The notes: generated by a model from the letters alone, not told the origin. Shown: positions 12,807 through 64,000, counted from the first letter of the stretch. The stretch: DNA of 64,000 nt from Tubulanus polymorphus (GCF_964204645.1 NC_134025.1:4712001-4776000); one strand, 5' to 3'. Program-made: numbers and translations.

Positions 12807-13625
12807 ATGGAAAATCATCCAAAAACATCCGTGAACTACTCGGTAGTATTCGATTTCGAGAAGAAAATTGACAGCGATTCTTTTGCACAATGGATGACGG
12901 AGAATTGGACCCACAGTTTTGTATACTCTATAGTCTACCTGATAGTTATATTTAGCGGTAAAGTTTACATGCAGAAACGTCCCAGATACGAACTACGTAC
13001 GGCACTTGCTATATGGAGCGCCATTCTGGCCGTATTCAGCCTGATGGGCGCAATTCGTACCTGGCCTGAATTCTTGCATTCAATCCGCCACCATGGAATA
13101 GAATATTCTGTATGCGTGCCTAGTTATTACTATGACAAGGTATTCGGATTCTGGGCTATCTTATTCACGTTGTCGAAGGTGTACGAGTTAGGAGACACGA
13201 TGTTCATTATTCTACGCAAACAACAACTTATTTTCCTGCATTGGTACCACCATTTCGCCACCCTGATGTACGCCTGGTACAGTTACACCGAGTACCCAGC
13301 TCCAGCACGTTGGTTTATCGTCATGAATTACACCGTTCACGCGTTCATGTACACCTATTATGCCCTAAAAGCCATGAAATTCAACATTCCTCGCTGGGTG
13401 AATATCATCATCACGAGCATGCAGCTCACTCAAATGATCATCGCTTGCGCCATAAACATCTGGATCTACAATATCAAAAAGCGTGGAAAATTCTGCCATC
13501 AGTCCGACGGGAATATCAGAATCGCGCTTACGATGTATCTTAGCTATTTCATTTTGTTCGGACATTTCTTCTACACAACGTATATGGTTAAGAAACAATC
13601 TCGATCACCAAAGAAAATACAATAA
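12807..13625 (+). CDS. ELOVL6: Very-long-chain fatty acid elongase, ELOVL3/6 class; single coding exon
   Basis: LSKVYELGDTMFIILRKQQLIFLHWYHH (HxxHH box), MNYTVHAFMYTYY, ITSMQLTQM and a C-terminal KKxx ER-retrieval signal (KKIQ). Splice acceptor near 12717 upstream of the ATG. Confidence 0.93.
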   Translation: MENHPKTSVNYSVVFDFEKKIDSDSFAQWMTENWTHSFVYSIVYLIVIFSGKVYMQKRPRYELRTALAIWSAILAVFSLMGAIRTWPEFLHSIRHHGIEYSVCVPSYYYDKVFGFWAILFTLSKVYELGDTMFIILRKQQLIFLHWYHHFATLMYAWYSYTEYPAPARWFIVMNYTVHAFMYTYYALKAMKFNIPRWVNIIITSMQLTQMIIACAINIWIYNIKKRGKFCHQSDGNIRIALTMYLSYFILFGHFFYTTYMVKKQSRSPKKIQ

Positions 13626-41182: not shown

Positions 41183-42301
41183 ATGCTCGCCGACAACACA
41201 ACTGGAATTTTAGAATCTAATACGACGAATTCCTCTTCAAATTCCAGCGTTGATATTTTCGAACTCAACGAAACACCAGAAGCTATCATAGCACCGATCG
41301 TATTCCTTATCATATTCGTTATAGGTGTCGCTGGAAATGGTACCTTAATTTTTACAGTAGTTCGTAATAAGTCAATGCGTAACGTGCCGAATATTTTCAT
41401 ACTGAGTCTTGCAGCTGGAGATCTCACTCTGATTCTAGTATCTGTACCCTGCACCTCTACTATCTATACATTTACGAACTGGCCGTACGGAGTGGTGATG
41501 TGCAAAATTAATGTTTTCCTCCAAACAATGTCGCTAGGCGTCTCTGTGTTTACGCTGGTGGCGCTCGCTGGTGACCGATTCACCGCCATCGTGAATCCCA
41601 TGAGAAAGCACATGGGAAACCCAGTCGCCCGGACTGTTGTGATGGCTACCTCGATTTGGGTCGTATCATTCTTACTAGCTATTCCCGATGCGGTCTCCGC
41701 TCATATCTTTCCAGCACGTGACAAATATGGAGTAATACGATTATATCTATGTAATGATTTCAGGCAGGAATGGGGTTCATTGTACCCAAAAGCGCACTCC
41801 ATCTTTCGTCTGCTGGTTTATTTCATCATACCTATTTTGGTAATTAGCGGGTTCTATGCTGCTATTGCTAATATATTGATGCGTAGTTCCTATCAGATAC
41901 CTGGCGAAGTATCGAGTCAAGCAAATCACGGCAAACAGATCGAGGCGCGAAAGAAAGTCGCGAAAGTTGTCCTGAGCTTGGTTGTAATTTTTGTTATTTG
42001 TTGGTTGCCACGCCACATTTTCGTAATGTGGTTCCATTTCGACCCGGGAGATTATAGCGATTTCTGGCATGCCTTCAAAGTTTTCGGGTTTGTGATGAGT
42101 TACATAAACTCATGCGTCAACCCCATAACATTGTACTTTCTCAGTAAGCAATTCAGAAAGTATTACAATCGATACCTGTTCTGTTGTTGCGCAAAGAGGC
42201 GGTCTCCAGTTGAAGGATCAACTTCAATGTACAACTTCAACAGCACAGTTCGTCGTACCAGTACCACCATGACAATGTTACCCCATTCTCAATCTGTATA
42301 G
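41183..42301 (+). CDS. Neuropeptide GPCR of the CCHamide / excitatory peptide (GGNG) / bombesin-endothelin receptor family; single coding exon
   Basis: 372 aa with an N-glycosylated N-terminus, NKSMRNVPNIFILSLAAGDL, SLGVSVFTLVALAGDRF, RKKVAKVVL, CWLPRH and NSCVNPITLYFLS, characteristic of GRPR/CCHa receptors. Acceptor AG at 41141-41142. Confidence 0.9.
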   Translation: MLADNTTGILESNTTNSSSNSSVDIFELNETPEAIIAPIVFLIIFVIGVAGNGTLIFTVVRNKSMRNVPNIFILSLAAGDLTLILVSVPCTSTIYTFTNWPYGVVMCKINVFLQTMSLGVSVFTLVALAGDRFTAIVNPMRKHMGNPVARTVVMATSIWVVSFLLAIPDAVSAHIFPARDKYGVIRLYLCNDFRQEWGSLYPKAHSIFRLLVYFIIPILVISGFYAAIANILMRSSYQIPGEVSSQANHGKQIEARKKVAKVVLSLVVIFVICWLPRHIFVMWFHFDPGDYSDFWHAFKVFGFVMSYINSCVNPITLYFLSKQFRKYYNRYLFCCCAKRRSPVEGSTSMYNFNSTVRRTSTTMTMLPHSQSV

Positions 42302-46200: not shown

Positions 46201-47472
46201 GAATTAAATTTAGTGCGTAAAAGTGGTATTTTGGTAAAATAGATTTTTGCCGAGGGGTATAAACGAGGATTCACGTAAGATTTAATAATTAATGAACAAA
46301 AAACCTTCCCACTACAAGCCGCAAATATACGTCTAGTTGTCTGATGATGAATTCTCACAGATTTTCAAGTGATGTAAATGGTTGGACGCAAGTTTTCGCG
46401 AATATCTCGCAAGTCCTGACGAGATTTACGCTTCGAGACATCTTGAGAATGTCTGATGAATAATTGACTAAGTGTAATCATTGCGATGCGTCGATATTCT
46501 CTCCACGGTATAGAAGTTCTTTAATTCTCTAACTTATTCACCTCGAAATTAAAACCAATGCAATATGATTTGCAAAGTAATTTTCATCACGACACACGCT
46601 CTGTTTACCACCGAGGGCAGTCGGTTTTTCTCCATGGAAATCAAATGTTAATCATTTTGCTTTAAGAAATTTGAAAGTTTTAGAAAAAAAACGACATCGT
46701 TGTGGATTTTCGGAGTCATTGTGTAGAACATGTGTTTGGCATTTCTCCCGAGGCTGACAACTTCGATTTATCTTCTGTGTCGAGTTAATCGAAGCGCATT
46801 CGTCGAAAGCAATTGTTTTAGTCTGTACAATTAATCAAAGATAACACGATAACCAAGCGGATTAATTTAAATTACGACCGCCGTAAACAGTTGAGACACG
46901 TTGGAAGTATGCTGTGTATTCAAATTTGTTGGTAATGATCTATTGGTCCGGTGTGCTGGAAAGGCAACTCACGACAAAAACGGTCTTTTAAGCGGAAAAA
47001 TTTAATGAACAACGTAACATACAAAAGATAAAACAATTAAACAATAGTTGATTTTCTATTATCGAACAATATGATTTGTGACGAGCTGCAACATCTCGTA
47101 CTGAATAAGAAGTATACCGAATAACGACTTTGAGCATATACATGTATATTCATAAAGCACAACCTATTATTACTTATATATCAATCAAATACTATATCAA
47201 TCGATGAGACGTGAAATATTTCTGACCGATAAAAACTCATTTAGCATCTTACAGTAGCTTTCAGGCAACAACGTGTGAAATAACGAGAGAAACAGAAATA
47301 GCCGGTTTCACAACAGATCAACGATAGCGTTCTTCCATCATGAATCTGAAAAACGAATGAGACTATTACACGGACTTTTTGGTCTTGGCGCTAGATTTTC
47401 AATTCATTATTTTAAAATGATTGAGTTGCCGGGGCGGGCGTAGGAAAACCCTGTTAATACTAACCATGGTTA

Positions 47473-47518
47473 GGCTAACCATGGACGTATAATCTAGTTT
47501 ATACGTCCATCAGCTAAC
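47473..47518. mobile_element. 32-bp CATGG-terminated inverted repeat between 7-bp near-direct repeats; putative P-superfamily excision footprint
   Basis: ggctaac-catggacgtataa tctagt ttatacgtccatc-agctaac (12-bp perfect arms, flanks match 6/7). The right arm recurs as tagtttatacgtccatg at 11999-12015. Confidence 0.58.
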
Positions 47519-49938
47519 ATGGTTTTCCTGCGCCTGGCCCTGATTGGTACGAGAACATTTCTCTTACCTTCATACAAGTTATGTATTGTCCGTCTGCGCC
47601 CATATCTATAATCACTACGCTGTAAAACATGAATGCGAAAATTGAATATAAAGCTCTGGTGAAAAATGAAAAATACGAGAATAACAACAACATGTTCATC
47701 GCCCTCAGGATATCACTACGGAATTCGGAACATTCGGAATATTTGACTACACATGGGAAGTGTGTCGTACGACCGTTTCTTTCACGATCATCGCAGGCTG
47801 ACGTCGAGATTTTATCCATCTCGGAAAGGTAAAACATATGAAACTGCGCATTCATATCTATCGAAAGATATCCAAGATATATATACACACATCTACACGG
47901 ACACATTTAGACAGACCTTTTACGTATATGCAAGTCTTTTGTGTTGTTTTAAATATACATTTCGTCCGATGTCGTAGTTTTGTTGTGCGGTGCCAAAGAA
48001 GACAAAGAAAATTAACTAAAGCAATAAGCACAGCTCGGGATTTATCTTGCGAGGAACATTGAAATGTATGTAGACGTTATCTTAACACACTTACGAAATG
48101 GAAGCTACAATAATGTTGTTTATTGATAAGATAAATACATCTTAACATCTTAGACATTTTAGTTCCGTTTAGATTCGGTACAATTTATGCATCACCTTAG
48201 CCTATTTCTTGACTAAATTGCAAAGTCTTTAAGATATTTTTTCATTTGAACATAACAGTCAAGAACAAATGCATTACGAAACCGAGGATCTCTACGATTC
48301 ATCTATCATCATCTACGTACCCTTTCCTTTTCTCCGCGAAAATGACGTAAGATCTAAGAAAGCGGCGCAGAAACTAGATAGCTGGCTGGTTGGTACTGAT
48401 AACTATACGGAATATGTCACGGTCCATCTCCATCAATCTTGCATTCTTCTTTAAACTTGTTTTTATTTTTTAACTCATGTTCGCGCGTTACAACAGGAGC
48501 TGGTTTGTTTGCTCATTTCAGTTATTTTCAATGCAACTATACTGACGAAATCAATGTAGTACATGTATTTTGATTGCACGAGCTTATATATTATATAGAT
48601 CTGTCTATAACTGTAAATTATGGACGATGTTTATTCTATGTCCGCTCAATTCATTTCGAATACCAAATAAAATCAATATATCTTTGATGAATAACTTATC
48701 TCTCTAATCTATGTATTTAGATATATGACTAAATAAGTATGTTCATAGCAAGTTCAGAGTGTGTTTCTACTTCTACTTTCTGTTTCTTCTTGTAACAAAA
48801 TGGTGACTTTTTTCCGAGATACGAGCAGTGGGTTTCCATACTAGACATGCAAAGGATGTTAAGTAAAGCTTACATAGATATGATGTGCATACATGCAACT
48901 GTAGAAGTTAGTTTGCGAAAAAAAGTAAAACTAAACTGAAGAGCAGCTATGGAGGTGGCACAGCACAACAATCTAACGTACCTTACTTAACAAAACAAAA
49001 TAATATGTCCGCAATGTTCAGCTTCACAAGAGAATTCGACGAAAACTCGAATTTGTTATTTAGTTCATCAAATACAGGTTTATCATTTTAAGGAGGTTTA
49101 TTTTGATACCAAGCTAAAGCGTAGAGGTCTGGAATATCAAACGGTAATATGCTTATCGGTAAAAGGTACACAAGGCGAAAATCGTTGAATGCGTTTGAAA
49201 AAAATCAATTTTTATTTCTCCGCAGAAATTAACATGAAAACTAATCTAAATATATACATGTGTAGAAAATCTGTATTCTATTCGAAATATTTGGATTATT
49301 TGTCGTCTAGTTTGAGCATGATTCTAATATGTTGGTTAGATTTTAAGTGTTTCTTGCATTGTTCTTCGTAGATCAAACTATCATGAACCTAAACAAAAGG
49401 GGTACCGATTATGTGCATACATAATATTTAAATGAAGCTATAAATTGATGATACAAACATAAAAATTCGGTAAAATATTTGATTACATGAATCAAGCATA
49501 GAAACTGAAATGGTCAAAATTGTATAAAGTTACAAAGATAAATGTTTGGCTACAAATTGAGGTAATATAAAGTAATAATTTAACAAATTATATGATATAG
49601 ATGGATATACTAAAACGAATCGTAGATTAAGAAAGGGCTTCCTTTCACTATATTTCATCCGAATTAAAGAAAATAATCGAAATATTTCGGATTGGATGAC
49701 TAGATTCAAATGATCAAATATTATTTCATGTATCATCTTGTGAGATCTTATGAAAGGAAGTCCCGAGGAATCCAAAAACTGAGTGCGTGTACATAGAATA
49801 GCGAAAACCGAAAAGGATATACCACGGAAGCGGTTATACTTATTGTGTCAGGGCATCCACTAATACTTTATGAGCTGACGCTTAATGAAAACAATGAACC
49901 TAAGGTAGCCAGCTACCTATTATATGTATTATTCACAT

Positions 49939-52900
49939 TTAATCAATGAAGGCGCGTTCAGGCAAACTGTAGGATCTTGGAAGCGGGGGCCGAGGGGGAG
50001 GCACATCACTATCGTCAGATCCTATTGAACCTACTGAAGATGCTGGCTCTAAGGGTGCTGCTAGCGGTGCTGCCATTTCGGCAGACAATGCCGAAGAAGA
50101 TTTCGTAAATCGTTTGAATTGAAACAATGGCTTTGATATCTTCTTATACTTTGGTGGTTCTATTGCATTGAATTGCATCGGTGCTGAGGAGGGCAGAGAC
50201 TTGCTGTAATGATCTTTAAAATGTTTCATCTTCCGTTTATTATCTTTCATTTGCTCCTTTTCAAGCTCTTTTCGTAACTTCTTTTCTTTTTTCTGACGCT
50301 TCTTTAATTCCTTTTCATTCGGCTCCGATTCAACAGAGCTCCAAGATTTTACACTCACCGGCGTCGAGGGAGAATTTCCACATGGATCCATGAACGATGT
50401 GGATGATTCAGAGCTTAAACTTAACAGCGATGAGATATCAGGACGTTTCCTTCTTGCTAGATCCTTTGTTTGCTTCTTGGAAGGGTCTGCCTCAGCGGCA
50501 CTTTCCTTCTTCGATTTTCCAAGCCGACTTAGATAGCATTGAAGTCGTTTACCAACAGTCCTTGGGGGAGGTTTAGGTGGTTCAGCACATATATCAATAC
50601 TTGCTTCCCGAATGGGATCGAGACAATACAGATCAGAACTATACATCTCGGTACCAACGGAAACAGCCTTGTCAGCTGTTTCAATTGTCCTTTTAATCGA
50701 CCCGGTATCATCTCGGGAGTGGTATGCACTCCCAAGTGATGGCTTCGGCCCAAAGCCAATGACAATACCATAACCATGGCGTGCAGGAGCCCCATATCCA
50801 ATTGATCCAATGGAACCTTTCCTCAACGATTTTGATGATACGAGTGACATCGGCATGTTTACCATATTTATATCCGTCAGTGATGAACTATTCGATGTTT
50901 CTGGTTTTGAAGGCAATGAATAACGCCTACAAGGCGAAGCTAATAATATTTTGCGAGTGTCCGCACCAACATTCACACTTGTAAAAGCATTCAAATCTTC
51001 AGTTCCAACATGTTTATCCAATTTTACGATATTTTCAGTGACGAGTTTATAACTTTGATTCGAATGCGATCCATTTTTGGTCGTATTACATACTTCGTAT
51101 ACAGGATCACGACCATTCGAAATCAGTTTAACACCATCACGCTGTATATTCTCAGAATTTAGTGATTGTCCTTTCTGTGTCCAATCATCCACCATTATCG
51201 GTGTCTCCTGCACAGATGCATCTGACATATCAGGTCTTATTTCAATGCTGATATCCTCCGTAGCTGGTTTTTCGGATCGTTTACGCAGTTTGGTCATGGT
51301 TCCAACCTCCCTTATTCCATGACATCCAGTGGAAGTTGCAGCATCACAGATGTCAGGTTGGTCGGTTAGTGTTTCTTTGGTAGAAGTACGCGGTCTAACG
51401 TAAACCCCAAAGTTCTTTTGAATAATGTGCTCCGTCATCATTGAATTATCTACACTAAAAACCGAGCGACTGTCGTCTCCTGATCTACGATCAATCTTTT
51501 CAACGTAGTCGGTGTTTAGTTCGACATCTTGCAGTTCGACTGTTCTAGCATCACAACCAGCATCACTGGTATCGTGGACTAGTGCATCGCACGCTTTGTC
51601 ACTGGCAGTGCTAACCGAACCACTACATTCGACGGATTTCATCAGACCTAATGCGTATTGGTCGACAAACGTAATTTCATCCTGACACACAGGGAATACG
51701 CCAACTGCAACATTCACATAACTTTTCATATCGGATTGCGTTTCAGCATCACTTGTCAAAGCCATGAAACAATCGTCTCCTATTTCGGCATCAACCATAT
51801 TTACAGGTTCACTATTAGAAGCCTCGTCTTTCATCTCACGAACTTCTGCAGATCCCTCACCACAAGAACTATCGCACATCTGTACTATAGATCCCTCACC
51901 ACAAGAACTATCACACATCTGTACTATAGATCCCTCACCACAAGAACTATCACACATCTGTACTACCGATCCCTCACCACAAGAACTATCGCACATCTGT
52001 ACTATAGATCCCTCACCACAAGAACTATCACACATCTGTACTACCGATCCCTCACCACAAGAACTATCACACATCTGTACGATAGATCCATCACCACAAG
52101 AACTATCACACATCTGTTCTATAGATCCCTCACCACAAGAACTATCACACATCTGTACTATAGATCCCTCACCACAAGAACTATCACACATCAGTACTAC
52201 TGATCCCTCACCACAAGAACTATCGCACATCTGTACTACCGATCCTTCACCACAAGAACTATCGCACATCTGTACTATAGATCCCTCACCACAAGAACTA
52301 TCACACATCTGTACGATAGATCCCTCACCACAAGAACTATCACACATCTGTACTATAGATCCCTCACCACAAGAACTATCACACATCTGTACGATAGATC
52401 CCTCACCACAAGAACTATCACACATCTGTACGATAGATCCCTCACCACAAGAACTATCACACATCTGTACGATAGATCCCTCACCACAAGAATTATCACA
52501 CATCTGTACGATAGATCCCTCACCACAAGAACTATCACACATCTGTACTACCGATCCCTCACCACAAGAACTATCACACATCTGTACTATAGATCCCTCA
52601 CCACAAGAACTATCGCACATCTGTACTATAGATCCCTCACCACAAGAACTATCACACATCTGTACTATAGATCCCTCACCACAAGAACTATCACACATCT
52701 GTACGATAGATCCCTCACCACAAGAACTATCACACATCTGTACGATAGATCCCTCACCACAAGAACTATCACACATCTGAACGATAGATCCCTCACCACA
52801 AGAATTATCACACATCTGTACGATAGATCCCTCACCACAAGAACTATCACACATCTGTACTACCGATCCCTCACCACAAGAACTATCACACATCTGTACT

Positions 52901-55900
52901 ATAGATCCCTCACCACAAGAACTATCGCACATCTGTACGATAGATCCCTCACCACAAGAACTATCGCACATCTGTACTACCGATCCTTCACCACAAGAAC
53001 TATCACACACCTGTACTACCGATCCCTCACCACAAGAACTATCACACATCTGTACTACCGATCCCTCACCACAAGAACTATCACACAGCTGTACTACCGA
53101 TCCCTCACCACAAGAACTATCACACATCTGTACTATAGATCCTTCACCACAAGAACTATCGCACATCTGTACTACCGATCCCTCACCACAAGAACTATCA
53201 CACATCTGTACTATAGATCCTTCACCACAAGAACTATCACACACCTGTACTACCGATCCTTCACCACAAGAACTATCGCACATCTGTACTACCGATCCCT
53301 CACCACCACAAGAACTATCACACATCTGTTCTATAGATCCCTTACCACATGATGGATTTTCCGAAGAGAAGCACATAGCCATTGATTCCTCTTCGTCAGA
53401 ACTATCGATTCTATTTGAATCTCCCATATCGGCATCTGCTAGAATCAATCTTTCACCCTGTTTACCCAATGAACACGCATTACTACGCAGGTTGTCTATT
53501 TCAGAATGTTCATTGTTTTCACTTTTTCCATCAACGATATTTGTCGTATCCTTCATTTTAGCCACTGCCTCAGTTTCTACATCAGATACATCGTCACTTA
53601 TAATCTCCCCTCCACATTCCAGACAGCATGTGCTTATCTGAGGTATTGGGCAATTGCATTTATTAGTACTATCTATCTGTACAGGAGGGCCCAAACATTG
53701 AATCCCTATATCCTGGGTTAATATCGGGATACGTGATATGTTCAAATCCCTCATATCACACGAAAATGTAGCTTGAGATTCATTGTCAGAATCTTCGCAG
53801 AACTCTTTATCTTCACCGCCTCCAAGATGTCCTTCATCTGTGTCACTACTAAAAGATTCGGTACCAGATTCATCATCATCATCTAAGTCTCTCACAGATG
53901 ATGCATCGGAACTTTCCGAATAACTATAGTAGCTAACTCTTTTCAAGTAAGGTGATCTTAAGTAAGGGAATTCTTTAACTACTTCTGAAACAGTATTACA
54001 TATATCTTCCCCAGAGCCCTTTAAGGTTTCTATGCCTTCACACGTAGTTTTTGTTTCATTTTCAAAATGTTGGTTGTCGGTATCGTCTTTTGTAGAAGTA
54101 CTTAAAATCTCTTCAATTTCAATGGTGAAAGAGATTTCATTTTCCTCCTTAGTAACACTTTCATTATAGATTACGCTTTTATCGCTGTCACTGGGGTAAC
54201 TATCACTACATGTATCATCATTATCTGAACTAGTTTTTACATCATTTAGTGAAAATGTATTCGCTTCCGTGGATTTACTCAAAGAACACCAATCATTATC
54301 TATACCTACCGTGTAATCCCTTGAAGATTTTCGAATTTCATTTTGACTCTTGCGACGCCTGCTACTAGAGTGGAAAGTCTTTATATCTGGATCATCTAAT
54401 GAATAAGCGCGGGATTTCCGTTTTCGTATTTCGTTGAAGACATTTTCTTCATCTGAACTTTCAATGATATGTTCATCGAATTCAATCTTAGTATTCGTCC
54501 CTTTGTTTCTGAATCTAACAAAGTGCTCCGTACTTGTACCGACATTCTCATATTCGTTGTTCGTACACGTTCCTGTTGACATACACGAATTCAAGTCACT
54601 GGTACTAGTCGTTGTGCTGTATGTATCAATGCGTTCGACACTCGTTCCCAGTTCCCTTGTCGCTGCACACACGAGGACACTCTGATCCAATGTTGTTAGT
54701 GGAACTGTTTCAGAACTCGAATCAGCGCGTTCTACGATCAGTGTCATAGTTTGCTTATTCATTACTTCCTTATGAAACATTCTTGTACCGACATCTTTAA
54801 CGCGCATATCAGCGAATTCCATTTCGTTTCCACCGGCCCATTCTATAATTTCCGGAACCATTGTACTCTTCGTGGCTTTGGCTCCGTGTTGTTTAATCAC
54901 AGTTTCACGAGTCTGAGCATAAGCGCTCAATGATTCTAGGATAAAGTTCATCATTGGTGTTTTTCCCCGTAAAAATTTTCCCGGTTCCAGGTCGAGCTCT
55001 TCGATTGTTTCCGGTTTATTCTGATGCACATTCACAGCATTTTCAATGGGAACATATTGCTGGGGCCCCATACTGGAAAGTAGACCTTTGTAATAGTTCA
55101 ACAACTCCAGTTCTAATTCATGAGTCGAAGTCTCATCTTCATCGGTGAACGTAAGAAAATCAGAACCCGATGACGTGGTTGTCATGTCTGGTGAGACGGT
55201 ATTGCATCCGCTCTCGACAGAATACACTAACTCTGTATTCGATTCTCGATCTCGCGTTTCGAACTTCGTTGTCGTGTGTTTATGATGCACCACTTTGTCC
55301 TCGGTCAGCGTTTGTTTGTCGAAGTAAAGCCGATTTTCCGTATTGGTTTGTTTATTGTGTGGGATTGGTTCCATAGTGTTTGTAAACTTATCACTTGGCG
55401 TTGGTTTTTCCGTTTGAGTGCGGGTATGTACTCGTATCCTTTCCTCGGTATTCGTCTGCCTATTTCTCTGTGATGTTAGAACCGGGTCTGTTTCACACGA
55501 TACTTCCTTGGATTCATTTACTGTGATGGTTTCTTTATCGAATCCTATAGCTGGAATGCACGCCTGGATACAGTTATCGGTCCAAGATGATTTCATATTG
55601 CTGTCCATTGTGGTATATTCCTCGCGAATCTTACACATATCTGTTTGGGTTGCTGCAATACAGTTAGGTGATGCTTCCATTTCCGGAGAACTCGGCGACC
55701 GAAAACGACTGCTACCAAATCTTGGATGACTTGGTTTCGACCCACGATGCTCTTGCTTGCCGGAGTCCAGATATCCGAGGCACACTGAACCTTTGACGAA
55801 CTTGATATCTGGACTATTTTTTGTCTCTTTAATATCTGGAACTTTAATTTGAAGCAAAGACTCCATTCTTTCCCTAATATTCCGTTTTATTAGGAGTAAA

Positions 55901-56823
55901 TCAATTCCTTTGTTTTTCAACATCATCTCGGTCAAACTACATGTATGTTGAAGAGTTTGTAGTAATTGCTCCAGTTCATCTTTTCTCTCAACACCATTCA
56001 CAACATCCTTCCCGAAATGATCTTTCAGCTCTTTCACAATTTGCGTTTGCTTAGCTTTTATCGAATCAATCACCTGGGACGTAACGTCGTTTATTTGCTC
56101 TTCGATTTGTTTAATATCCGTAGCATGTTTTTCAATACACACCAATTGGTTTTTAACGTGGTCCATACGCGAACGACACGATGTGACCATTTCATTCAGA
56201 GAATCTGTATATTCGGTTATTCCTTCTTTTAACGAACAAACCTCGTGATTTCGGTGTTCTTGAAATGTGCAGACCACGCACACACACGATTCGCACGGTT
56301 TACAGTAGAATCTGATTGCTTCTTCTTCGTGAACTTTACACACTATGTCCTTCTGTGATTCAAGGTCGAAAACGTTGTGAGACTTTGTTACCTTGGTCAC
56401 TTTGTGAACCTCCGTGCAATCCTTACACATAGTTTTTGCGCATTCAATACATTTAGAACAGGCCGGCTTTGATGTTTCCAAAAACCTTATACAAATTTGA
56501 CAAATATCTTTCTCCTTCTTCGCTGGTTTGCTTTTGTTCACAACCTCAGTTAGATTTGACACGAGGAAATTGTCGGGTAGATTCTTTATTCCTCCAGAAG
56601 GGATGTCCGTTCGTTTTCGGCAGATCGGGCAAGATATACTTCGAGAAAAAATAACATAACGATAAGTGGTTCTTTCCATTTCAGAATCGTTGTGTTTCTC
56701 CAAGCACGCTGAACAAAACGTATGTAAGCATGCTAATGTTTTTGGTCGCTTGTACGTCTCGAAACATATTTTACACACGAGAAACTGGTCACTTATCTCC
56801 TGCATAAATTCCTGTTCTGCCAT
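49939..56823 (-). CDS. Giant TRIM/RBCC protein (TRIM56/TRIM45/TRIM2-3-like N-terminus) with ~1900-aa low-complexity tail; single 6.9-kb coding exon
   Basis: Uninterrupted 2294-aa ORF with C3HC4 RING (CKIC..CLHTFCSAC..CPIC), LPDNF, B-box1 (CQIC..CIEC..CKDC..H), B-box2 (CKVH..FYCKPC..CVVC..H..H) and a coiled coil. Splice acceptor at 56843-56842 just upstream of the ATG. No NHL, filamin or SPRY domain visible. Confidence 0.9.
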   Translation of the reverse strand: MAEQEFMQEISDQFLVCKICFETYKRPKTLACLHTFCSACLEKHNDSEMERTTYRYVIFSRSISCPICRKRTDIPSGGIKNLPDNFLVSNLTEVVNKSKPAKKEKDICQICIRFLETSKPACSKCIECAKTMCKDCTEVHKVTKVTKSHNVFDLESQKDIVCKVHEEEAIRFYCKPCESCVCVVCTFQEHRNHEVCSLKEGITEYTDSLNEMVTSCRSRMDHVKNQLVCIEKHATDIKQIEEQINDVTSQVIDSIKAKQTQIVKELKDHFGKDVVNGVERKDELEQLLQTLQHTCSLTEMMLKNKGIDLLLIKRNIRERMESLLQIKVPDIKETKNSPDIKFVKGSVCLGYLDSGKQEHRGSKPSHPRFGSSRFRSPSSPEMEASPNCIAATQTDMCKIREEYTTMDSNMKSSWTDNCIQACIPAIGFDKETITVNESKEVSCETDPVLTSQRNRQTNTEERIRVHTRTQTEKPTPSDKFTNTMEPIPHNKQTNTENRLYFDKQTLTEDKVVHHKHTTTKFETRDRESNTELVYSVESGCNTVSPDMTTTSSGSDFLTFTDEDETSTHELELELLNYYKGLLSSMGPQQYVPIENAVNVHQNKPETIEELDLEPGKFLRGKTPMMNFILESLSAYAQTRETVIKQHGAKATKSTMVPEIIEWAGGNEMEFADMRVKDVGTRMFHKEVMNKQTMTLIVERADSSSETVPLTTLDQSVLVCAATRELGTSVERIDTYSTTTSTSDLNSCMSTGTCTNNEYENVGTSTEHFVRFRNKGTNTKIEFDEHIIESSDEENVFNEIRKRKSRAYSLDDPDIKTFHSSSRRRKSQNEIRKSSRDYTVGIDNDWCSLSKSTEANTFSLNDVKTSSDNDDTCSDSYPSDSDKSVIYNESVTKEENEISFTIEIEEILSTSTKDDTDNQHFENETKTTCEGIETLKGSGEDICNTVSEVVKEFPYLRSPYLKRVSYYSYSESSDASSVRDLDDDDESGTESFSSDTDEGHLGGGEDKEFCEDSDNESQATFSCDMRDLNISRIPILTQDIGIQCLGPPVQIDSTNKCNCPIPQISTCCLECGGEIISDDVSDVETEAVAKMKDTTNIVDGKSENNEHSEIDNLRSNACSLGKQGERLILADADMGDSNRIDSSDEEESMAMCFSSENPSCGKGSIEQMCDSSCGGEGSVVQMCDSSCGEGSVVQVCDSSCGEGSIVQMCDSSCGEGSVVQMCDSSCGEGSIVQMCDSSCGEGSVVQLCDSSCGEGSVVQMCDSSCGEGSVVQVCDSSCGEGSVVQMCDSSCGEGSIVQMCDSSCGEGSIVQMCDSSCGEGSVVQMCDSSCGEGSIVQMCDNSCGEGSIVQMCDSSCGEGSIVQMCDSSCGEGSIVQMCDSSCGEGSIVQMCDSSCGEGSIVQMCDSSCGEGSIVQMCDSSCGEGSVVQMCDSSCGEGSIVQMCDNSCGEGSIVQMCDSSCGEGSIVQMCDSSCGEGSIVQMCDSSCGEGSIVQMCDSSCGEGSIVQMCDSSCGEGSIVQMCDSSCGEGSVVQMCDSSCGEGSVVLMCDSSCGEGSIVQMCDSSCGEGSIEQMCDSSCGDGSIVQMCDSSCGEGSVVQMCDSSCGEGSIVQMCDSSCGEGSVVQMCDSSCGEGSIVQMCDSSCGEGSIVQMCDSSCGEGSAEVREMKDEASNSEPVNMVDAEIGDDCFMALTSDAETQSDMKSYVNVAVGVFPVCQDEITFVDQYALGLMKSVECSGSVSTASDKACDALVHDTSDAGCDARTVELQDVELNTDYVEKIDRRSGDDSRSVFSVDNSMMTEHIIQKNFGVYVRPRTSTKETLTDQPDICDAATSTGCHGIREVGTMTKLRKRSEKPATEDISIEIRPDMSDASVQETPIMVDDWTQKGQSLNSENIQRDGVKLISNGRDPVYEVCNTTKNGSHSNQSYKLVTENIVKLDKHVGTEDLNAFTSVNVGADTRKILLASPCRRYSLPSKPETSNSSSLTDINMVNMPMSLVSSKSLRKGSIGSIGYGAPARHGYGIVIGFGPKPSLGSAYHSRDDTGSIKRTIETADKAVSVGTEMYSSDLYCLDPIREASIDICAEPPKPPPRTVGKRLQCYLSRLGKSKKESAAEADPSKKQTKDLARRKRPDISSLLSLSSESSTSFMDPCGNSPSTPVSVKSWSSVESEPNEKELKKRQKKEKKLRKELEKEQMKDNKRKMKHFKDHYSKSLPSSAPMQFNAIEPPKYKKISKPLFQFKRFTKSSSALSAEMAAPLAAPLEPASSVGSIGSDDSDVPPPRPPLPRSYSLPERAFID
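51850..53349 (-). repeat. Coding minisatellite: ~38 copies of a 39-bp unit encoding MCDSSCGEGS(I/V)VQ
   Basis: Plus-strand unit agatccctcaccacaagaactatcacacatctgtactat. About 1.5 kb, near-identical copies, one 3-bp insertion, reading frame preserved throughout. Confidence 0.97.
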
Positions 56824-59129
56824 CTTGAATTATGTTACGTTCTGAAATAGACAGCAACCAATATGATACCATGCAGTAAGAATGAACTATGTTCACGGTA
56901 GAATGAACCTACCCTTGCAGATGGTTTAGATCGCTTATCGGTTGGTGTGTATTGTATATCGGTTAGCTACTAGCCTCATCCGTTGTTACCTAGAATAATA
57001 ATTGACGAAATAATCTGAAATAAAAATGATGATTTATCCCGTATAACACTTCATCTTATATGAATGATGTTTTATACCGTTCAGGTAAAGGTTATCGGTG
57101 TATCACACAGGTGTTTTTCCGACGTCTATATGTATAACATATTTAGTAAGCAGTAGTTGTACTGTCTTCTCCCACCTGCATAAACTCTAATTTCTATTGC
57201 TCAATGGAACGAAAAGTAAGAATCTTGCATGAAGTTTAAGAGAAATGTATGAAAGAACTTCGCTAATGGTTTTTCTCGAGAAGCGCAAATTCTTAGGATG
57301 CATTCACTATTCGAAGAACGCAATAAAACTAACTTCGGTCCGTTTTGTTATATTGTTAACTAGCAAACATCAATTCTGTTCACTGTTCGTGTCTGTTAGA
57401 GAAGTAAATGAACTGAAATATTCCCTCTGCATGATAGAAACTACGTAGAGAGGAATTTCGCGTAAACAAACCTATTCCTAATAATGCTCGAAATATCTTT
57501 ACCTGCTTATTATTTCCGTAGGTGAATATATGCCGGGTTGGGATAAAATCGTACACGAAACCAAAAAGAAAACGCCATCTGAAATACAGGGAATAACGAC
57601 GTATTACTAACATAATCATTAGAAAACTTGATCGGGAGAAAATACCAGGCAGAATTTTCCGTCGATACGCCTACAGACTTATGTAATCTCTATGTTGCTA
57701 TCAAGAATGCCAGGGGTCCTACACTAACCCACGATAAACATTTCCTGGATTCTTGTAAACCACAGGTGATAAAAAAGCGACCTATTGTCAGAGAGATCTT
57801 TCATAACAAAGGTTGCCATTCGTGATTCGATCATTTTGTTTTCGCCGTTATTTTGTCAAATTGATATTACTGATCTGTGGGATAGCCCTGATTATACAAA
57901 ATCAAAAAGCCTTAAAGAAGATGGCGAATTTCGACTTGCAAATTTCGAAATGCGACTTGCAGATTTGTTGAAAGCTTTCCAAAAGATAACACGTACGCCT
58001 ACTATACTTCAAAAGTCGACGTTTAAATATTTAGTCTAACTCGCAGAGTTCTAAGAAAACACCAGAACGCTGGAAGCTATCCGAGTCCTTATTACCTACC
58101 AACTGTGAAAATACTACCGAATTCAGGTTGAGAAAATCATGTTTGGAATTATCGAGAGATAATTCATTTGCTACATTCGAGTACCAATTCCTCGATAGGT
58201 TTTAGTTCATCTTAAAGATTGCAATTTCATCGAAGTAAAGTAAAACACTCATAATTCAATGAAGAAAAGGGACCAAACACCTAAATATCTGGCTCCGGTC
58301 AAGAAAAGCTATTAAAACTGAATATCACCTGATTTGAATGAGGTCTAAAAGAAATACATGTACACCTACCGACATTACGACGTTTTCCATCATGCAGATT
58401 ATTCCAAAGCATTCAGCACAGCCATCCCTTCTTGCACTACCAAAGCGTTCGGCTGTTTGTAGTTATTTTCGTCACGTGGCATGCGCTTATTCTTATACCT
58501 GCGTATTTGTCGGTGAGAAAGAATTAAGTTTTCCACTTCCCAACCGATGCCGGGGATGCAGCTATTATTGGTACGCATTTCATAAATGTATACCTGTATG
58601 TTGGTGAAAACACCACACTCGATCGTGGTTGGAAAATAAACCATTTTGGCCTGTTTATGAACTTGTTAACAACAATACATACCTAATTAGTAAGGCATGA
58701 TTCACAAGGCTGATTCCTGATGATGCCTGAAAAAGACGATAAGGATGGCCAAGGTGCTACAGCGTTATAATAGGGCCAACTGTAATTATGGTAGACCTAC
58801 CATGATATCAGTTTAAGATTATTTTGAATTATTACATCAAATCATTATCAAGATTTTTGAAAATAGATTCGATTATGAAATGGTAACCGTGGGAAATATC
58901 ATGACTATTCAGACGCTGAACACGTTGTTATATAAAAGACGGATAACCTAGGTGCCGAACTTGTGAAAGACCCGTTAGATGATTTATGAAGCTTATAGAA
59001 TGCGTTATTGATAAGCCTTACCTGAAGAGAATATATTCAATGTAATTATCGACCTGTCTATTCGGTGATAAGTGAAATACATCATTCACACGAAATTCCA
59101 TCATTGCACTAAGACGAGGTCTCGACGAC

Positions 59130-60713: not shown

Positions 60714-61775
60714 CTAACGATGCTGGTGGCACATAGTTCGCAGTTGTTTTCGAAAGCGACGCCGCGAAGCGCAATATATAAAGAAATTATTTGATGCTAC
60801 AATCATCCTGAGTAATTTCTGAAAAGCATTCAAATATAGGGACGTGGAACCTAGACCAATAATACCGTTGCTACTATTAACTAGATTGCTTATGGCTGCT
60901 TTCAGTTGAAACGATTTTTTCAATAGAAAGAAACACGAAATGATAACTAATGTCAACGTTAAACTGCGGTCATGTTCGTTGGTATGATTTGAAGACATTG
61001 TTTTTCTAGCTGCATTAGCAGATTTCAAAGTTAAAATCAATCGCATTGTGGTCATAAATACTATTACAGTGGGAATGAATACAAATGTTGGCGCGCGAGC
61101 AAATGTCTCGTAGTATCGTATATAAATGTTTCTTCCAAATGATGTATATTTTTGTGTCCATCGCTCGTAGCCAGTGCATGGATTGCGCGAACGGCGAGTC
61201 GTATAAAAGAAGAAATTCTTTACACCGTCACTGGCAGATATCAAAACGAGTAAGGTGAAGAATATGTAACTTTTCTTAATTGTGATAACTTTTCTTGCCT
61301 TTAGAGGCCAACACACGGCGATATATCTGTCTGCAGCGATCAGGAATGTTACGAGATCACCAATATGTGCAAATATAAGTTGAAAGTTTTGTGTATAAGA
61401 AAACAGTCGTTTCATAGTATGATTTATTTCGGAGGTCATGTCCAACAGCAAAGTGCGACTGTAGAGCTGATAATGAAAATCAAATGTCACATACATTAAA
61501 CAAACAAGCAGATCAGCAATGGCCAAACATTTCAAATAAAATATGCTTGTGTTACTGGATCGTTCTTTAAACAGAATAATGAAAGACAAAATGTTTGCGC
61601 AGACACCGAAGATCGCAATACTGAAAATTGTATAATTCATAACTTGTAGAAACATGTTCACATGTAGTGGTTTGTAATCGGCATGATGAATATAATTACA
61701 CCGAGGATGGGGTTTAAACCCTCCTTCGGTCGTTGAACTGACAATTACATCTGATATATTGAAAAGCTGTCTCAT
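60714..61775 (-). CDS. Divergent class A GPCR, FMRFamide/sex-peptide-receptor-like (possibly chemosensory) subfamily; single exon
   Basis: 353 aa, 7 TM segments, YLKCLAIADL, DRYIAVCWPLKA, TM7 ASNNFFIYC (NFxxY instead of NPxxY) and helix 8 RRFRKQL. Confidence 0.86.
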   Translation of the reverse strand: MRQLFNISDVIVSSTTEGGFKPHPRCNYIHHADYKPLHVNMFLQVMNYTIFSIAIFGVCANILSFIILFKERSSNTSIFYLKCLAIADLLVCLMYVTFDFHYQLYSRTLLLDMTSEINHTMKRLFSYTQNFQLIFAHIGDLVTFLIAADRYIAVCWPLKARKVITIKKSYIFFTLLVLISASDGVKNFFFYTTRRSRNPCTGYERWTQKYTSFGRNIYIRYYETFARAPTFVFIPTVIVFMTTMRLILTLKSANAARKTMSSNHTNEHDRSLTLTLVIISCFFLLKKSFQLKAAISNLVNSSNGIIGLGSTSLYLNAFQKLLRMIVASNNFFIYCASRRRFRKQLRTMCHQHR

Positions 61776-62298
61776 GATAATACTCTCACTACAACTCGAT
61801 AACTGAGAAGATTGCTGGAACAGAGCTTCGCACCCAACACTTTACTAGACGATTAACGGCACGCCGATCAGCCCCAGACTGCCGGCGGCATCAATCGATA
61901 CGTATGAAGATTATTCATGTATTGATCGAAGATATTCGTAATTTGCGACTCAGTTAGAGGCTACTTTGTAGCCTTTGATTTGTCGCCTCGAATAACATGT
62001 AAGCTTGTTGTTTTTTGGAATAAACCATCGCTTAACCAAGCCGGACAATACCCTTGAAAATCCTGGCGTAAGGGCAAGACGAAATGGCGAACTTCAGCTG
62101 CTTTCTTAGCTAGTGAACTAGAGCTAATTAACCAGATGCACTATAGTTCGGTCGCCGTAACAATTATCGTCGGCTATCTTGGACATTTCGGCCGTATACA
62201 GCGACCCAGCGCGCTAAATTCTGTTGTCGACCAGGGCTAGTTCCGGCCCACAAAGAGAGTGGCCAGCGTGGTGGACCATTTTCGGACCATAATTTCGC

Positions 62299-62453
62299 CT
62301 AACTGACATTCGGTTTGTGGCTCTAAAGTCCAGGGTCAACTTCGGTGGAGTTAGTCGACTGTAGTCGAACTAAATGAAACCGAAAGTCAGTTAGTCGGAA
62401 CTATATTCTGGATATAATTCGTAAATTGAGCGCATTCGGTTATTAGTTCCGAC
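62299..62453. repeat. Two adjacent inverted repeats between the divergent GPCR and TRMT6 genes (possible MITE remnant)
   Basis: ctaactgacattcggttt (62299-62316) / aaaccgaaagtcagttag (62377-62394) match 17/18. gtcggaacta (62394-62403) / tagttccgac (62444-62453) match 10/10. Confidence 0.6.
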
Positions 62454-62675
62454 CACTAGTCGACTAGATACGAAAACCAAATTTGGCCCAGGCTGCCGGC
62501 CCGACGACCCACCGCTCGCGCGCAACAATCGAATGTCCTGTCCAGTATTCCGCTCTGGAACGCGGTTAGGGGAACACTGGCCAAGAATGGATTTTCAAGG
62601 TCGTTGGCCATGTAAATATTGAATGTAGCATTTCTGCTTGTTTACTCCTCCACGTTTTAATTGATACTGGTAATC

Positions 62676-64000
62676 ATGGCTACGATAAGTGAAAACGATT
62701 GGGTTATTGTAAAGAAAGACGATAATCTGAAAGTTTTGAAGATACGCTCAGAGCGGTAAGATCCGAACCACTTTTTCAGCGTACTATTTTCCCTTCCCGG
62801 CGGCGTGCGTCGTAGGCCTACCTCCGCTCCATTTCATGCGTGCTAGATTATGATATATTTCTGTTTATTTGTGATACATGCATGTTGAAGTGGTTCTTTA
62901 ATGAAATCTTTGCAGGCCGGTATGGATGGAGAAAATGAAATTTGTATTTGATGGTGCTGTCGGTCATTCATATGGTACAAAATTTGAAGTTGGTAATGGT
63001 GCATTGGTGAAATTTGTTCAACCTAACGATACACCTGAAAGTTGCCTTACAGATATGGAAGAAAGGAAAGGTAGGCTACAATTTACCAGTAAGCCTTGTC
63101 AGTTTGTGTTCCACAAGTTCCACAATTAGATATTAATCAAGCCAACGTTTAATCCCATCCAATCATAAAATCACAGCATATCCAAAGATAAGATCGCTTA
63201 CTGATTTATCAAATAGTTGACAACTCTCTTTAGTAGAGTGAATCAACAGATACAGTGAGAACATTACATTTCAAACAATTATCATTCCGTCATCATTACA
63301 ACTGTAACTCCTGGATTATCATGACAAATTCCATCTAACTGAATTCATAAGAAATTGTCTCATTCCTTAGTTGCTGACAACCGGAATCTGCACGATTGTG
63401 ACACAAATCAGAAACTTTCGAAGGAAGATATTGAAGCTATGCGAGCTGAAGGACTTCATGGAGAGGTAACATGTATTCAGTCGATGCTGCGCTGATGAAT
63501 TAGGCAAACCTAAATTCTATGTAGGATGATGTTTGATTTACATTTTTCTATTTTAAATTATGTACAGGCAATCATTGGGAAACTGATTCAAAATAGTGAA
63601 ACATTTGATAAGAAAACTGAATTTTCTAAAGAAAAATATATCAAGAAGAAGAAAAAGAAGTTTGTGAAATTTTTTACAATCTTTTTTGTGTTTTTGTGTT
63701 AGATGAGTTCTTGTCTGATGATTGCATTCCGTTTCAGGTTCACCAAGATAATAACCATTCTGAAGCCAACTTTAAGATTGTTGTGTGAGATGCATTTCAA
63801 TAAAAACAAGACAAAGATATGGTCAGTTTAGTACGGCATTGCTGTTGTTTAATTGGCTCGCTTCATAGCATATTGAATTACTTAACAGTTAAACTTAATT
63901 CTAAATTTCAGTGGCATGCGAATCGATTCACTCGGCCAGATATTATCCCATGCAAATGTAAGAGCTGGGTCGAATGTAATTGTCGTAGAATCATGTGGTG
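62676..64000 (+). CDS. TRMT6: tRNA (adenine-58 N1)-methyltransferase non-catalytic subunit TRM6/Gcd10, 3' end outside window. Exons 62676-62755, 62916-63070, 63371-63465, 63568-63659, 63738-63821, 63912->64000
   Basis: Spliced translation has GHSYGTKFEV, DNRNL..D..NQKLSKEDIEAMR..G..GE, LIQNSETFDKKTEFSKEKYIKKKKKK and MRIDSLGQIL..ANVRAG, matching TRM6 conserved blocks. Confidence 0.92.

Follow-up and report, generated by a model that had tools for sequence, protein, structure and literature searches.

A TRIM subfamily whose tail is likely zippered by LC8 into a rod

The window analysed here, a 64,000-nucleotide stretch of the Tubulanus polymorphus genome (GCF_964204645.1 NC_134025.1:4712001-4776000), holds on its minus strand an ORF (49939-56829, ATG at 56823) for a predicted protein of 2294 aa. 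This protein is of TRIM type and a likely ubiquitin ligase, and its sequence points to a TRIM subfamily whose tail is likely zippered by LC8 into a rod. As with the original prediction, which knew of no such TRIM subclass, none was found described in the literature searched. The combination is not a new category, since both of its parts, the TRIM RBCC module and the LC8 ladder, are already known.

Gene model and RBCC module

The features by which a TRIM/RBCC protein is recognized, namely a RING, two B-boxes and a coiled coil, are all present in the ORF, as had been predicted:

49939..56823, minus strand: uninterrupted ORF, 2294 aa, predicted read-through form (0 of 2000 shuffles stop-free for each non-repeat part past the splice donor)
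56620..56775, minus strand: RING finger, C3HC4, aa 17-68 (Pfam PF00097, E 4.9e-8, 33.2 bits, cut-off 21)
56377..56502, minus strand: B-box 1, about aa 108-149 (Cys/His columns invariant in 39 rows)
56230..56352, minus strand: B-box 2, aa 158-198 (Pfam PF00643, E 6.8e-9)
55849..56232, minus strand: coiled coil and fold-back helices, aa 198-325 (AlphaFold2 helices, block pLDDT 65-90)
56913..56985, minus strand: 5' untranslated exon (X5 joints 56841/56913 and 56985/57499, GT-AG)
57499..57578, minus strand: 5' untranslated exon (X5 joints 56985/57499 and 57578/58370)

Another exon reaches from 58370 upward (X5 joint). The metal ligands of the RING are invariant in 39 aligned rows, and the Arg following the last Cys is nearly so. 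The B-box 1 region matches the Midline-1 B-box structure 2jun (aa 104-200, E 1.2e-6) and the RBCC matches the TRIM28 structure over aa 13-294 (E 7.8e-22). The best solved-structure matches are the TRIM-NHL ligases TRIM3 (E 2.5e-28) and TRIM2 (E 2.1e-23), with which the RBCC is shared, and the TRIM56 RING structure is matched at E 2.7e-12. Unlike TRIM2 and TRIM3, the Tubulanus protein carries no NHL or filamin domain (Pfam, E 0.1), and the tail of its 857-aa spliced form is unstructured in the AlphaFold2 model. Only RING and B-box exceed the Pfam cut-off in the ORF, in agreement with the claim that a recognizable TRIM C-terminal domain is missing; a Pcf11-repeat match within the tandem repeat lies below cut-off. 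In a quick, midpoint-rooted tree of 103 rows (30 near-duplicate or multi-RING rows left out), the array-bearing and short-tailed rows stand on the opposite side of a 99% SH-aLRT branch from all 18 NHL-group rows. The names 'TRIM56-like', 'TRIM45-like' and 'TRIM2-like' are automatic labels. A Tctex-1-domain gene located 40 kb from the TRIM gene is regarded as a coincidence.

Layout of the tail

The family motif was learned blind from 26 orthologue tails, with the Tubulanus protein left out of training, and reached a log-likelihood of 3821 versus 226 on shuffled tails. It marks 72 sites in the 2294-aa ORF, which imperfect blocks and a 13-residue tandem repeat share equally (36 each):

55636..55662, minus strand: first canonical Gln-centred LC8-type site, anchor aa 393 (46 residues past the RBCC)
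55192..55551, minus strand: motif block 1, aa 425-544 (9 sites, spacings 11-14, one 24)
54484..54807, minus strand: motif block 2, aa 673-780 (9 sites, spacings 11-13)
53350..54483, minus strand: acidic Ser-rich spacer, aa 781-1158 (1 site)
51850..53349, minus strand: coding tandem repeat, 39-nt x 38.4 (spans 500 aa of the tail, 36 sites)
50989..51840, minus strand: motif block 3, aa 1662-1945 (15 sites, spacing mostly 11-14)
50083..50502, minus strand: basic C-terminal segment, aa 2108-2247 (shows homology to the Lineus orthologue's C-terminal part)

With this independently trained motif, 18 sites are found in aa 345-838 (2.5±1.5 after shuffling) and 15 in aa 1659-1960 (1.5±1.2), counts that 0 of 200 shuffles matched in either region. 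The RBCC module contains 0 sites, and at 4 bits there is no enrichment over aa 839-1158 (1 site) or aa 1961-2294 (2 sites). The original prediction had described an array of about 1900 aa; the motifs occur in blocks, interrupted by these unenriched stretches, and 500 aa of the tail are a 39-nt tandem repeat that it did not mention. All 15 of its example peptides were located in the ORF by eye, and its consensus, a pattern derived from the same sequence, matches the non-repeat tail 9 times versus 0.5 expected (0 of 1000 shuffles). The motifs lie in a region predicted to be disordered, with pLDDT below 50 over aa 367-854 (few residues excepted) and aa 1659-1900, in AlphaFold2 models that covered the long ORF apart from aa 858-1499 and aa 1901-2294.

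The coiled coil, which supplies a self-association domain near the sites as in LC8 clients of the KANK1 type, lies about 45-70 residues ahead of the first predicted site. Only two tail anchors in the Tubulanus protein form a fully canonical triplet. The strict ELM-type pattern LIG_Dynein_DLC8_1, a basic residue, any residue and then the canonical Gln-centred triplet, has 0 matches in this protein, a result that goes against the docking motifs as predicted, and 1-3 matches in 12 of 41 orthologues.

Motif preferences and conservation

Relatives of the gene occur in molluscs, brachiopods and annelids, and their rows share kinship and are not independent observations. Across 26 orthologues the number of sites ranges from 36 to 89, and their spacing is exactly 12 residues in 780 of 1405 cases and 11 in 135 of 1405; spacings of 11-13 account for 952 of 1405 versus 8 of 163 after shuffling. 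Orthologue sites carry Asp/Glu at position -4 (60%), Lys/Arg at -3 (40% versus a background of 12%), few bulky residues at -2 (7% versus 16%), Thr/Val/Ile at -1 (84%), Thr at +1 (67%) and Asp/Glu/Pro at +2 (40% versus 19%), and Pro does not exceed 0.5% at any position from -6 to 0. According to PMC6607443, LC8 prefers a hydrogen-bonding residue at -4, a basic one at -3, a small one at -2, branched residues at -1/+1 and Asp/Glu/Pro at +2, and excludes Pro before the anchor. The flanks of the family motif agree with these rules, the central Gln excepted: position 0 is occupied, commonest first, by Ser, Asn, Gly, Met, Glu and then Gln, which accounts for only 7% of sites. PMC12057147 lists Asn, Met, Ser and Gly among the LC8 anchors observed.

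The 13-residue repeat unit is Cys/Gly/Ser-rich, scores as family motif in 1 of its 13 registers and carries Glu at +1, and charged residues at -1/+1 are highly unfavourable for LC8 (PMC6607443). Binding of LC8 by the repeat itself appears rather doubtful.

Canonical Gln-centred sites occur within 150 aa past the RBCC in 33 of 37 rows of the long-array clade (81 observed, 23.6 expected) and in 15 of 19 sister rows, and the same interval of other TRIMs has them in 7 of 26 (8 observed, 11.1 expected). Among rows added later, 10 of 11 long proteins follow this pattern, as do 43 of 44 short ones, the 44 being what remains of 51 after removal of 7 with fewer than 60 tail residues or no BLAST hit. 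These short-tailed protostome paralogues (about 400-720 aa) belong to the same RBCC subfamily and carry about 1-4 canonical sites versus the ladder of dozens in the long form; the literature searched gave no description of them as LC8 clients. Examples are Tubulanus 'TRIM45-like' P0224, Priapulus P0055, Watersipora P0058, Macrostomum P0229 and Brachionus P0240.

The expectation that orthologues keep the motifs while spacers diverge is borne out by the sequences: motifs persist and spacers diverge, BLASTP searches of 53 orthologues with parts of the tail yielding no match better than E 0.002. The C-terminal segment aligns with Lineus at a local score of 137 versus 53±8 (0 of 300 shuffles); among 8 other orthologues, one is reached by 3 of 300 shuffles and the others by 14-130 of 300. 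In 25 of 26 orthologues the last motif runs straight into a conserved helix, and self-association helices follow the sites in LC8 clients (PMC12017986). This helix is degenerate in the Lineus orthologue and was not found in any of the six frames of the Tubulanus window; Tubulanus lacks this piece of the family architecture.

Splice forms

The RefSeq protein of Tubulanus polymorphus is identical to the ORF for 838 aa, after which a splice joins 54310 to an exon at 47619 and yields a form of 857 aa with 18 of the 72 sites. The X4 contig has the same junction:

47620..54309, minus strand: alternative GT-AG intron of the 857-aa form (holds aa 839-2294 of the long ORF)
47568..47619, minus strand: small coding exon of the 857-aa form (X4 joint 47345/47568)
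47106..47345, minus strand: last exon of the 857-aa form (stop 47340-47338; 47106 is merely the contig end)

At 47620 the loose end of X4 matches 54311-54340 at 30 of 30 positions. Runs X4 and X5 are regarded as RNA-like on their GT-AG joints alone. X5 does not cover the ORF below 54533, and X4 is present as short pieces from 47768 to 50749; X2 and X3 run unspliced across the donor at 54310 but are without splice joints and may be DNA, and X6 gave no alignment. The 6.9-kb exon of the original prediction is not the annotated form: RefSeq and X4 splice out of it, and the recorded transcript retains a quarter of the tail sites (18 of 72), which in part fulfils one of the outcomes that the original prediction named as refuting it. 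The read-through part is stop-free and homologous to the Lineus orthologue. The long form is quite probably made in Tubulanus polymorphus.

Proposed LC8 rod

The LC8 reading of the tail is strengthened by the conserved 12-residue spacing, the LC8 position preferences, canonical sites beside the coiled coil throughout the subfamily and a complex model that passes weakly; the few Gln anchors and the weak complex score speak against it. The model combined four LC8 chains, from another organism, with two copies of aa 484-523 (block 1, no Gln anchor). It scored 0.49 versus 0.24 for the best control, which lends weak support, with runs of 0.54, 0.21 and 0.49, one of the three falling under the best control; contacts agree in at least 88% and partner pLDDT is at least 39. 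In a benchmark that does not extend to peptides, 51 of 78 solved pairs and 2 of 108 mismatched ones reached the mark for a pass, and passes at scores of at most 0.60 comprise only 5 of the 78 solved pairs and all 4 passing mismatches of 180. The pass may reflect memory of solved LC8-peptide structures. Binding of LC8 to the tail is judged quite probable.

The closest precedent is the KANK1-LC8 rod, with 15 bound dimers, linkers of 3-4 residues and measured binding (PMC12803091); an 8-residue motif plus such a linker gives its spacing of 11-12. As in the KANK1 L2 linker described there, many weak non-canonical anchors lie at this spacing in a disordered region past a coiled coil, hinges separate the blocks and isolated peptides are expected to be weak. 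The likeness is one of working principle only. KANK1 is an adaptor with a folded ankyrin tip domain, while the Tubulanus product is a RING/B-box protein without a folded tip, and the 15 measured dimers of KANK1 compare with 18 (spliced) to 72 (read-through) predicted sites here and 36-89 in orthologues. ASCIZ/ATMIN and Nup159, the clients originally cited as analogues, share multiple LC8-type motifs in a disordered tail (PMC12803091 and PMC12017986), but their motifs are described there as mostly strong and canonical (7-11 in ASCIZ) with mixed occupancy, unlike the 7% Gln anchors and uniform spacing of the TRIM family. No TRIM with LC8 motifs was found in the mainly open-access literature searched; a passage of PMC9618055 met there concerns a viral protein.

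On balance, it is probable that the two tails of an inferred dimer are zippered by LC8 into a stiff beaded rod. RBCC modules would pair as an antiparallel dimer of about 17 nm, as in other TRIMs (TRIM5; PMC4936896), with fold-back linkers releasing both tails at the two-fold axis and thereby providing the parallel start needed by LC8. By analogy with KANK1, canonical sites by the coiled coil, the first at aa 393, would nucleate binding, after which the weak sites would fill cooperatively as blocks with motifs every 11-13 residues in the predicted disordered tail take up LC8 dimers. The motif blocks would probably form rods. Each LC8 dimer would add about 3.5 nm, which gives two rods of about 30 nm with a 140-residue hinge between them for the 857-aa form and a length of as much as about 250 nm for the read-through form. 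Such a ligase would be T-shaped, the rod replacing the usual C-terminal domain and keeping the RINGs a fixed distance away from a tip that anchors the protein or binds substrate, although this spacer role is put forward only tentatively.

Alternative readings

Of the roles originally offered for the tail, the rod-like spacer is favoured over the sensor because KANK1, not ASCIZ/Nup159, is the closest precedent, and nothing was found for a condensate scaffold. As an ASCIZ-like sensor or sink, the tail would bind LC8 with no structural spacer role, its occupancy tracking the LC8 level and tuning TRIM clustering, ligase activity or LC8 turnover. The wide range of site numbers among the 26 orthologues, the long linkers that break the blocks and the few canonical sites with which short paralogues manage are compatible with this, and TRIM RINGs require higher-order clustering (PMC4936896), which out-of-register LC8 bridging could supply. 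In PMC12803091, sensing goes with mixed linker lengths and strong sites, whereas short linkers of uniform length and weak sites go with rods; the TRIM family has the rod-type design, and the sensor is considered unlikely. Rather more weight, if still modest, is given to the possibility that Tubulanus makes only the 857-aa form, with aa 839-2294 a decaying former coding region inside an intron. About 18 sites would then remain, close to the 15 of KANK1, so that valency and not LC8 binding is at stake. The shared splice at 54310 in RefSeq and X4, the missing post-array helix and the residue-changing single-letter differences in the runs (6 of 8 after aa 838 versus 3 of 9 before, small numbers) fit this view. 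Against it, 956 non-repeat codons past the donor are open while other frames have 26-62 stops, X1 shows no stop or frameshift where aligned to the read-through part, and the C-terminal segment is homologous to Lineus. In addition, four of the five tandem-repeat variants found in at least five units are synonymous and the fifth is Ile/Val, RefSeq orthologue models are long (1586-2259 aa), no protein in the set compared shares the C-terminus of the spliced form (24 is the best local score) and five AATAAA signals lie past the long stop, weak evidence in AT-rich DNA.

Two readings dispense with LC8. Thr-x-Thr ladders every 12 residues occur in beetle antifreeze proteins, and the periodic tail might likewise fold on itself or polymerize as a beta-solenoid or cross-beta scaffold. 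In the best AlphaFold2 model the 13-residue repeat does take on a solenoid fold, mostly at block pLDDT 68-81, and its structural matches are generic beta-helices (Z 12.1 for the best, with an rmsd of 3.6 across 163 residues and 2% identity). However, the near-perfect repeat alone folds, the other four models average pLDDT 24.6-37.8, the imperfect blocks remain below 50, and confident but unrealistic solenoids are produced by AlphaFold2 on perfect repeats (PMC11795689). The canonical sites of the short paralogues and the block-breaking long linkers are also left unexplained, making this scaffold quite improbable. Least credible is a mucin-like or modification array of glycosylation or kinase sites: the tail is rich in Ser/Thr, several orthologues bear the database names 'mucin' or 'serine-rich adhesin', and an acidic residue at the third place ahead of Thr would suit casein kinase 1. 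Still, the protein has no hydrophobic stretch that could serve for secretion or membrane anchoring (hydropathy over 19 residues peaks at 1.14, and at 0.43 in the N-terminus), and modification sites need neither a 12-residue register nor a one-sided exclusion of Pro.

Implications

An LC8 rod built from weak sites has KANK1 as its single case, and its authors ask whether it is general (PMC12803091). The TRIM family provides a natural series, with four named phyla, site numbers between 36 and 89, a pair of splice forms and one version with a perfect repeat, that makes the rules of cooperativity, rod length and anchor tolerance directly testable. If the LC8-zippered rod is correct, TRIM ligases would gain a new C-terminal module, in which a recruited hub protein replaces a folded domain, and mollusc genes now labelled mucin or adhesin would be accounted for. 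More speculatively, a protostome TRIM subfamily might use LC8 as its missing C-terminal domain, having grown from a short ancestral paralogue with few strong sites into the longest ladders described, in spiralians (36-89 sites and up to about 300 nm, versus the 15 sites of KANK1). Species might then tune length by unit gain, including the recent 38-copy minisatellite expansion seen here, and an alternative splice donor might switch between an 18-bead and a 72-bead arm. Should this bolder and rather unlikely reading be true, it would describe a ubiquitin ligase on a molecular ruler.

Domain architecture and genomic neighbourhood

The gene lies on the minus strand as a single open frame of 2294 aa, with its ATG at 56823 and its stop at 49939. 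Its first 838 residues are identical to the RefSeq protein XP_074660546.1 (uncharacterized LOC141913002, Tubulanus polymorphus). As stated in the original prediction, it encodes a TRIM module without a recognisable C-terminal domain: Pfam returned RING and B-box only, and the first B-box was added from invariant Cys/His columns of an alignment of 39 rows. AlphaFold2, run on a 39-row alignment, folded aa 1-360 and placed aa 367-854 essentially below pLDDT 50; the closest solved structures are TRIM3, TRIM2 and TRIM28. No hydrophobic segment pointing to secretion was found in the protein. Neighbouring ORFs with Pfam matches (GPCR, elongase, glycosyltransferase, Tctex-1-domain) are exons of an animal genome.

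Features surrounding the TRIM gene in the window
2191-3396 (+) and 37981-38571 (-): two ORFs without Pfam match
5825-6517 (-): glycosyltransferase family 7 exon (Pfam)
7520-9145 (+), 41150-42301 (+) and 60714-61841 (-): three rhodopsin-family GPCR genes, each single-frame (Pfam)
10212-10841 (+): Tctex-1-domain gene (Pfam, E 2.8e-27)
12777-13625 (+): fatty-acid elongase (Pfam)
62278-62490: inverted repeat, adjoining a very high-copy short element (62429-62490)
62754-64000 (+): unannotated spliced gene, five GT-AG joints in sequencing run X5

The Tctex-1-domain gene, a member of the other dynein light chain family, is located 40 kb away from the TRIM gene.

A motif array arranged in blocks

All 15 peptides that had been put forward as examples of the tail motif were located in the ORF by eye, and the proposed consensus matched 9 times versus 0.5 expected, a figure qualified by the consensus having been drawn from the same sequence. 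For this reason, the motif was instead trained blind on 26 orthologue tails, with the Tubulanus protein left out. The best motif is a 12-column unit (log-likelihood 3821 versus 226 for shuffled tails). Its preferred residues are Asp (-4), Lys/Arg (-3), a small residue (-2), Thr (-1), Ser/Asn/Gly/Met/Glu/Gln (0), Thr (+1) and Asp/Pro/Glu (+2). Applying a threshold of at least 4 bits, 72 sites were detected in the 2294-aa ORF and none in the RBCC.

Distribution of motif sites along the tail
aa 345-838: 18 sites
aa 839-1158: 1 site
coding tandem repeat (51850-53349; 39 nt x 38.4, giving a 13-residue unit): 36 sites
aa 1659-1960: 15 sites
thereafter: 2 sites

Motif density exceeds that of shuffled sequence in the three rich regions, each of which beat 200/200 shuffles, and enrichment over the 200 shuffles is absent in the two poor regions (aa 839-1158 and after aa 1960). 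The proposed array of ~1900 aa is therefore real but organised in blocks, two regions of the tail being unenriched.

Family distribution and phylogeny

A search with aa 1-560 as query, limited to target proteins of 1261-4015 aa, yielded 41 proteins of 1484-2259 aa, whose named members belong to Nemertea, Brachiopoda, Mollusca and Annelida and are frequently annotated as mucin or serine-rich adhesin. Each of the 26 proteins used for training contains 36-89 sites, with a spacing of 12 in 780/1405 cases and of 11-13 in 952/1405 (shuffled: 8/163); 11 long proteins added later contain 23-59 sites each, and distant TRIMs just 0-5. A quick tree was built from 103 RBCC regions (midpoint root, no bootstrap); in it, all rows with at least 18 sites (32/32) fall inside one 38-row branch (SH-aLRT 99), and the Tubulanus protein forms a pair with Lineus (SH-aLRT 98). 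A 58-row branch (SH-aLRT 99) combines the array rows with short-tailed relatives, 18/18 NHL-group rows lying outside. Canonical, Gln-centred sites at most 150 residues from the RBCC are present in 33/37 clade rows and 15/19 sister rows; other TRIMs show them at chance level (7/26). Among rows unseen when the pattern was chosen, it recurs in 43/44 short and 10/11 long ones; since the rows are kin, these counts show conservation, not independent events. Named matches within the top 120 (out of 137) are all protostomes, in a word-limited search from which absence elsewhere does not follow. The short-tailed paralogue (rows P0202-P0253, including P0224, the Tubulanus 'TRIM45-like' protein) occurs in molluscs, flatworms, rotifers and others and carries about 1-4 textbook LC8-type sites beyond the coiled coil (43/44 rows), making it a simpler test object than the long protein.

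Immediately C-terminal to the last motif, a conserved helix is present in 25/26 orthologues; it is degenerate in Lineus and was not found in the window. The C-terminal parts of orthologues contain three conserved islands after the array (e.g. at aa 1188, 1474 and 1675 of the orthologue P0007), namely this helix, which is amphipathic (25/26 rows), and two short motifs mainly seen in mollusc rows, which are candidate partner-binding sites. In the Priapulus relative P0067, an NHL-like remnant was noted by eye at aa about 420-539, after LC8-type sites; it hints that the subfamily may derive from a TRIM-NHL gene, and NHL is not among the Pfam matches listed for P0067 (5 of 7).

Probable docking of LC8 and alternative readings of the tail

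The flank preferences of the family motif agree with those of validated LC8 motifs (PMC6607443), and its non-Gln anchors are among those recorded as observed in LC8 clients (PMC12057147). The adaptor KANK1 is described as binding 15 LC8 dimers via weak non-canonical sites with linkers of 3-4 residues, resulting in a rod with hinges, about 53 nm long, and as failing to bind LC8 through its peptides in isolation (PMC12803091). Counting against LC8 docking, 7% of sites have Gln at position 0, and no match to the strict canonical pattern was found in the protein. A complex model of four LC8 copies (sequence taken from contig L118, which matches solved LC8 at E 1.3e-58) and two copies of aa 484-523 scored 0.49 (runs 0.54, 0.21, 0.49) versus 0.24 for the best control, with contact agreement of at least 88% and partner pLDDT of at least 39. 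The mark applied is reached by 51/78 solved and 2/108 mismatched pairs, and at 0.60 or below by 5/78 solved pairs and all 4 passing mismatches of 180; this calibration does not cover peptides, and LC8-peptide complexes are already solved. The model weakly supports docking on aa 484-523.

The tandem repeat, which goes unmentioned in the original prediction, reaches 6.3 bits in a single register, the other twelve all lying below -6. Its 13-residue unit is an amplified copy of a Gly-anchored motif variant, which is found 16 times in the training orthologues and sits 11-13 residues off a neighbouring site in 14/16 cases. The Glu of the unit at +1 is unfavourable under LC8 rules (PMC6607443), and a Gly-Glu site resembling the unit is predicted by AlphaFold in KANK1 (PMC12803091); within the array, the repeat may act either as bead or as spacer. 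The best single-sequence AlphaFold2 model folds the repeat as a beta-solenoid; such models of perfect repeats are, however, a documented AlphaFold2 artefact (PMC11795689), and we regard a self-folded solenoid as very unlikely. A function of the tail as an LC8 sensor appears unlikely, and its use as a modification array highly improbable. At the DNA level, the tandem repeat is a coding minisatellite with 17 distinct units among 37 and a candidate length polymorphism that would alter the site count between individuals.

Protein forms

The RefSeq protein exits the frame past residue 838, where a GT-AG intron spans 54309-47620; its total length is 857 aa. This splice exists, as seen in a run X4 contig of 2447 nt, in which 47345 is joined to 47568 and the sequence past 47620 has 30/30 letters equal to 54311-54340. 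Run X5 (like X4, taken as RNA-like solely from GT-AG joints) covers 54533-56841 and contains three 5' introns in spliced form. Of the predicted 6.9-kb exon, the stop-free frame stands throughout its 2294 aa, but RefSeq and X4 splice out after aa 838. Production of the 857-aa form alone, which would bear on valency only, would fit the residue-changing differences (6/8 after aa 838 versus 3/9 before), but is unlikely, as the two non-repeat read-through parts are open (0/2000 shuffles stop-free for each) and aa 2108-2247 align with the C-terminal region of the Lineus protein (score 137 versus 53+-8; 0/300 shuffles). The frequent variants of the repeat unit are either silent or swap Ile and Val, and the read-through part looks like coding sequence. 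We read the gene as giving two forms, 857 aa and a long read-through, the latter being probably made. The final intron of the 857-aa form carries a small, MITE-like nested inverted repeat (47431-47540), the core of which (47475-47510) is high-copy in sequencing run X1.

A model for the assembled ligase

A literature search of incomplete coverage turned up no description of LC8 motifs in a TRIM; each part is known already, and their combination and scale appear new. TRIM coiled coils are described as antiparallel dimers of about 17 nm with linkers folding back to the two-fold axis (PMC4936896), and LC8 is reported to need parallel client chains (PMC12017986). If the Tubulanus protein dimerizes in the antiparallel manner of other TRIMs, the fold-back of the linkers would make both tails begin side by side and thereby meet this need. 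Strong sites beside the coiled coil could serve for nucleation, after which weak sites would fill in register. Scaled from KANK1, the 857-aa form would present two rods of about 30 nm each and a 140-residue hinge. The long form would extend to at most about 250 nm, and its counterparts in Lingula and Paralvinella to about 300 nm. The assembly would be a T-shaped ligase in which the RINGs are kept at a distance from the tip, which may be closed by the conserved helix in most orthologues.
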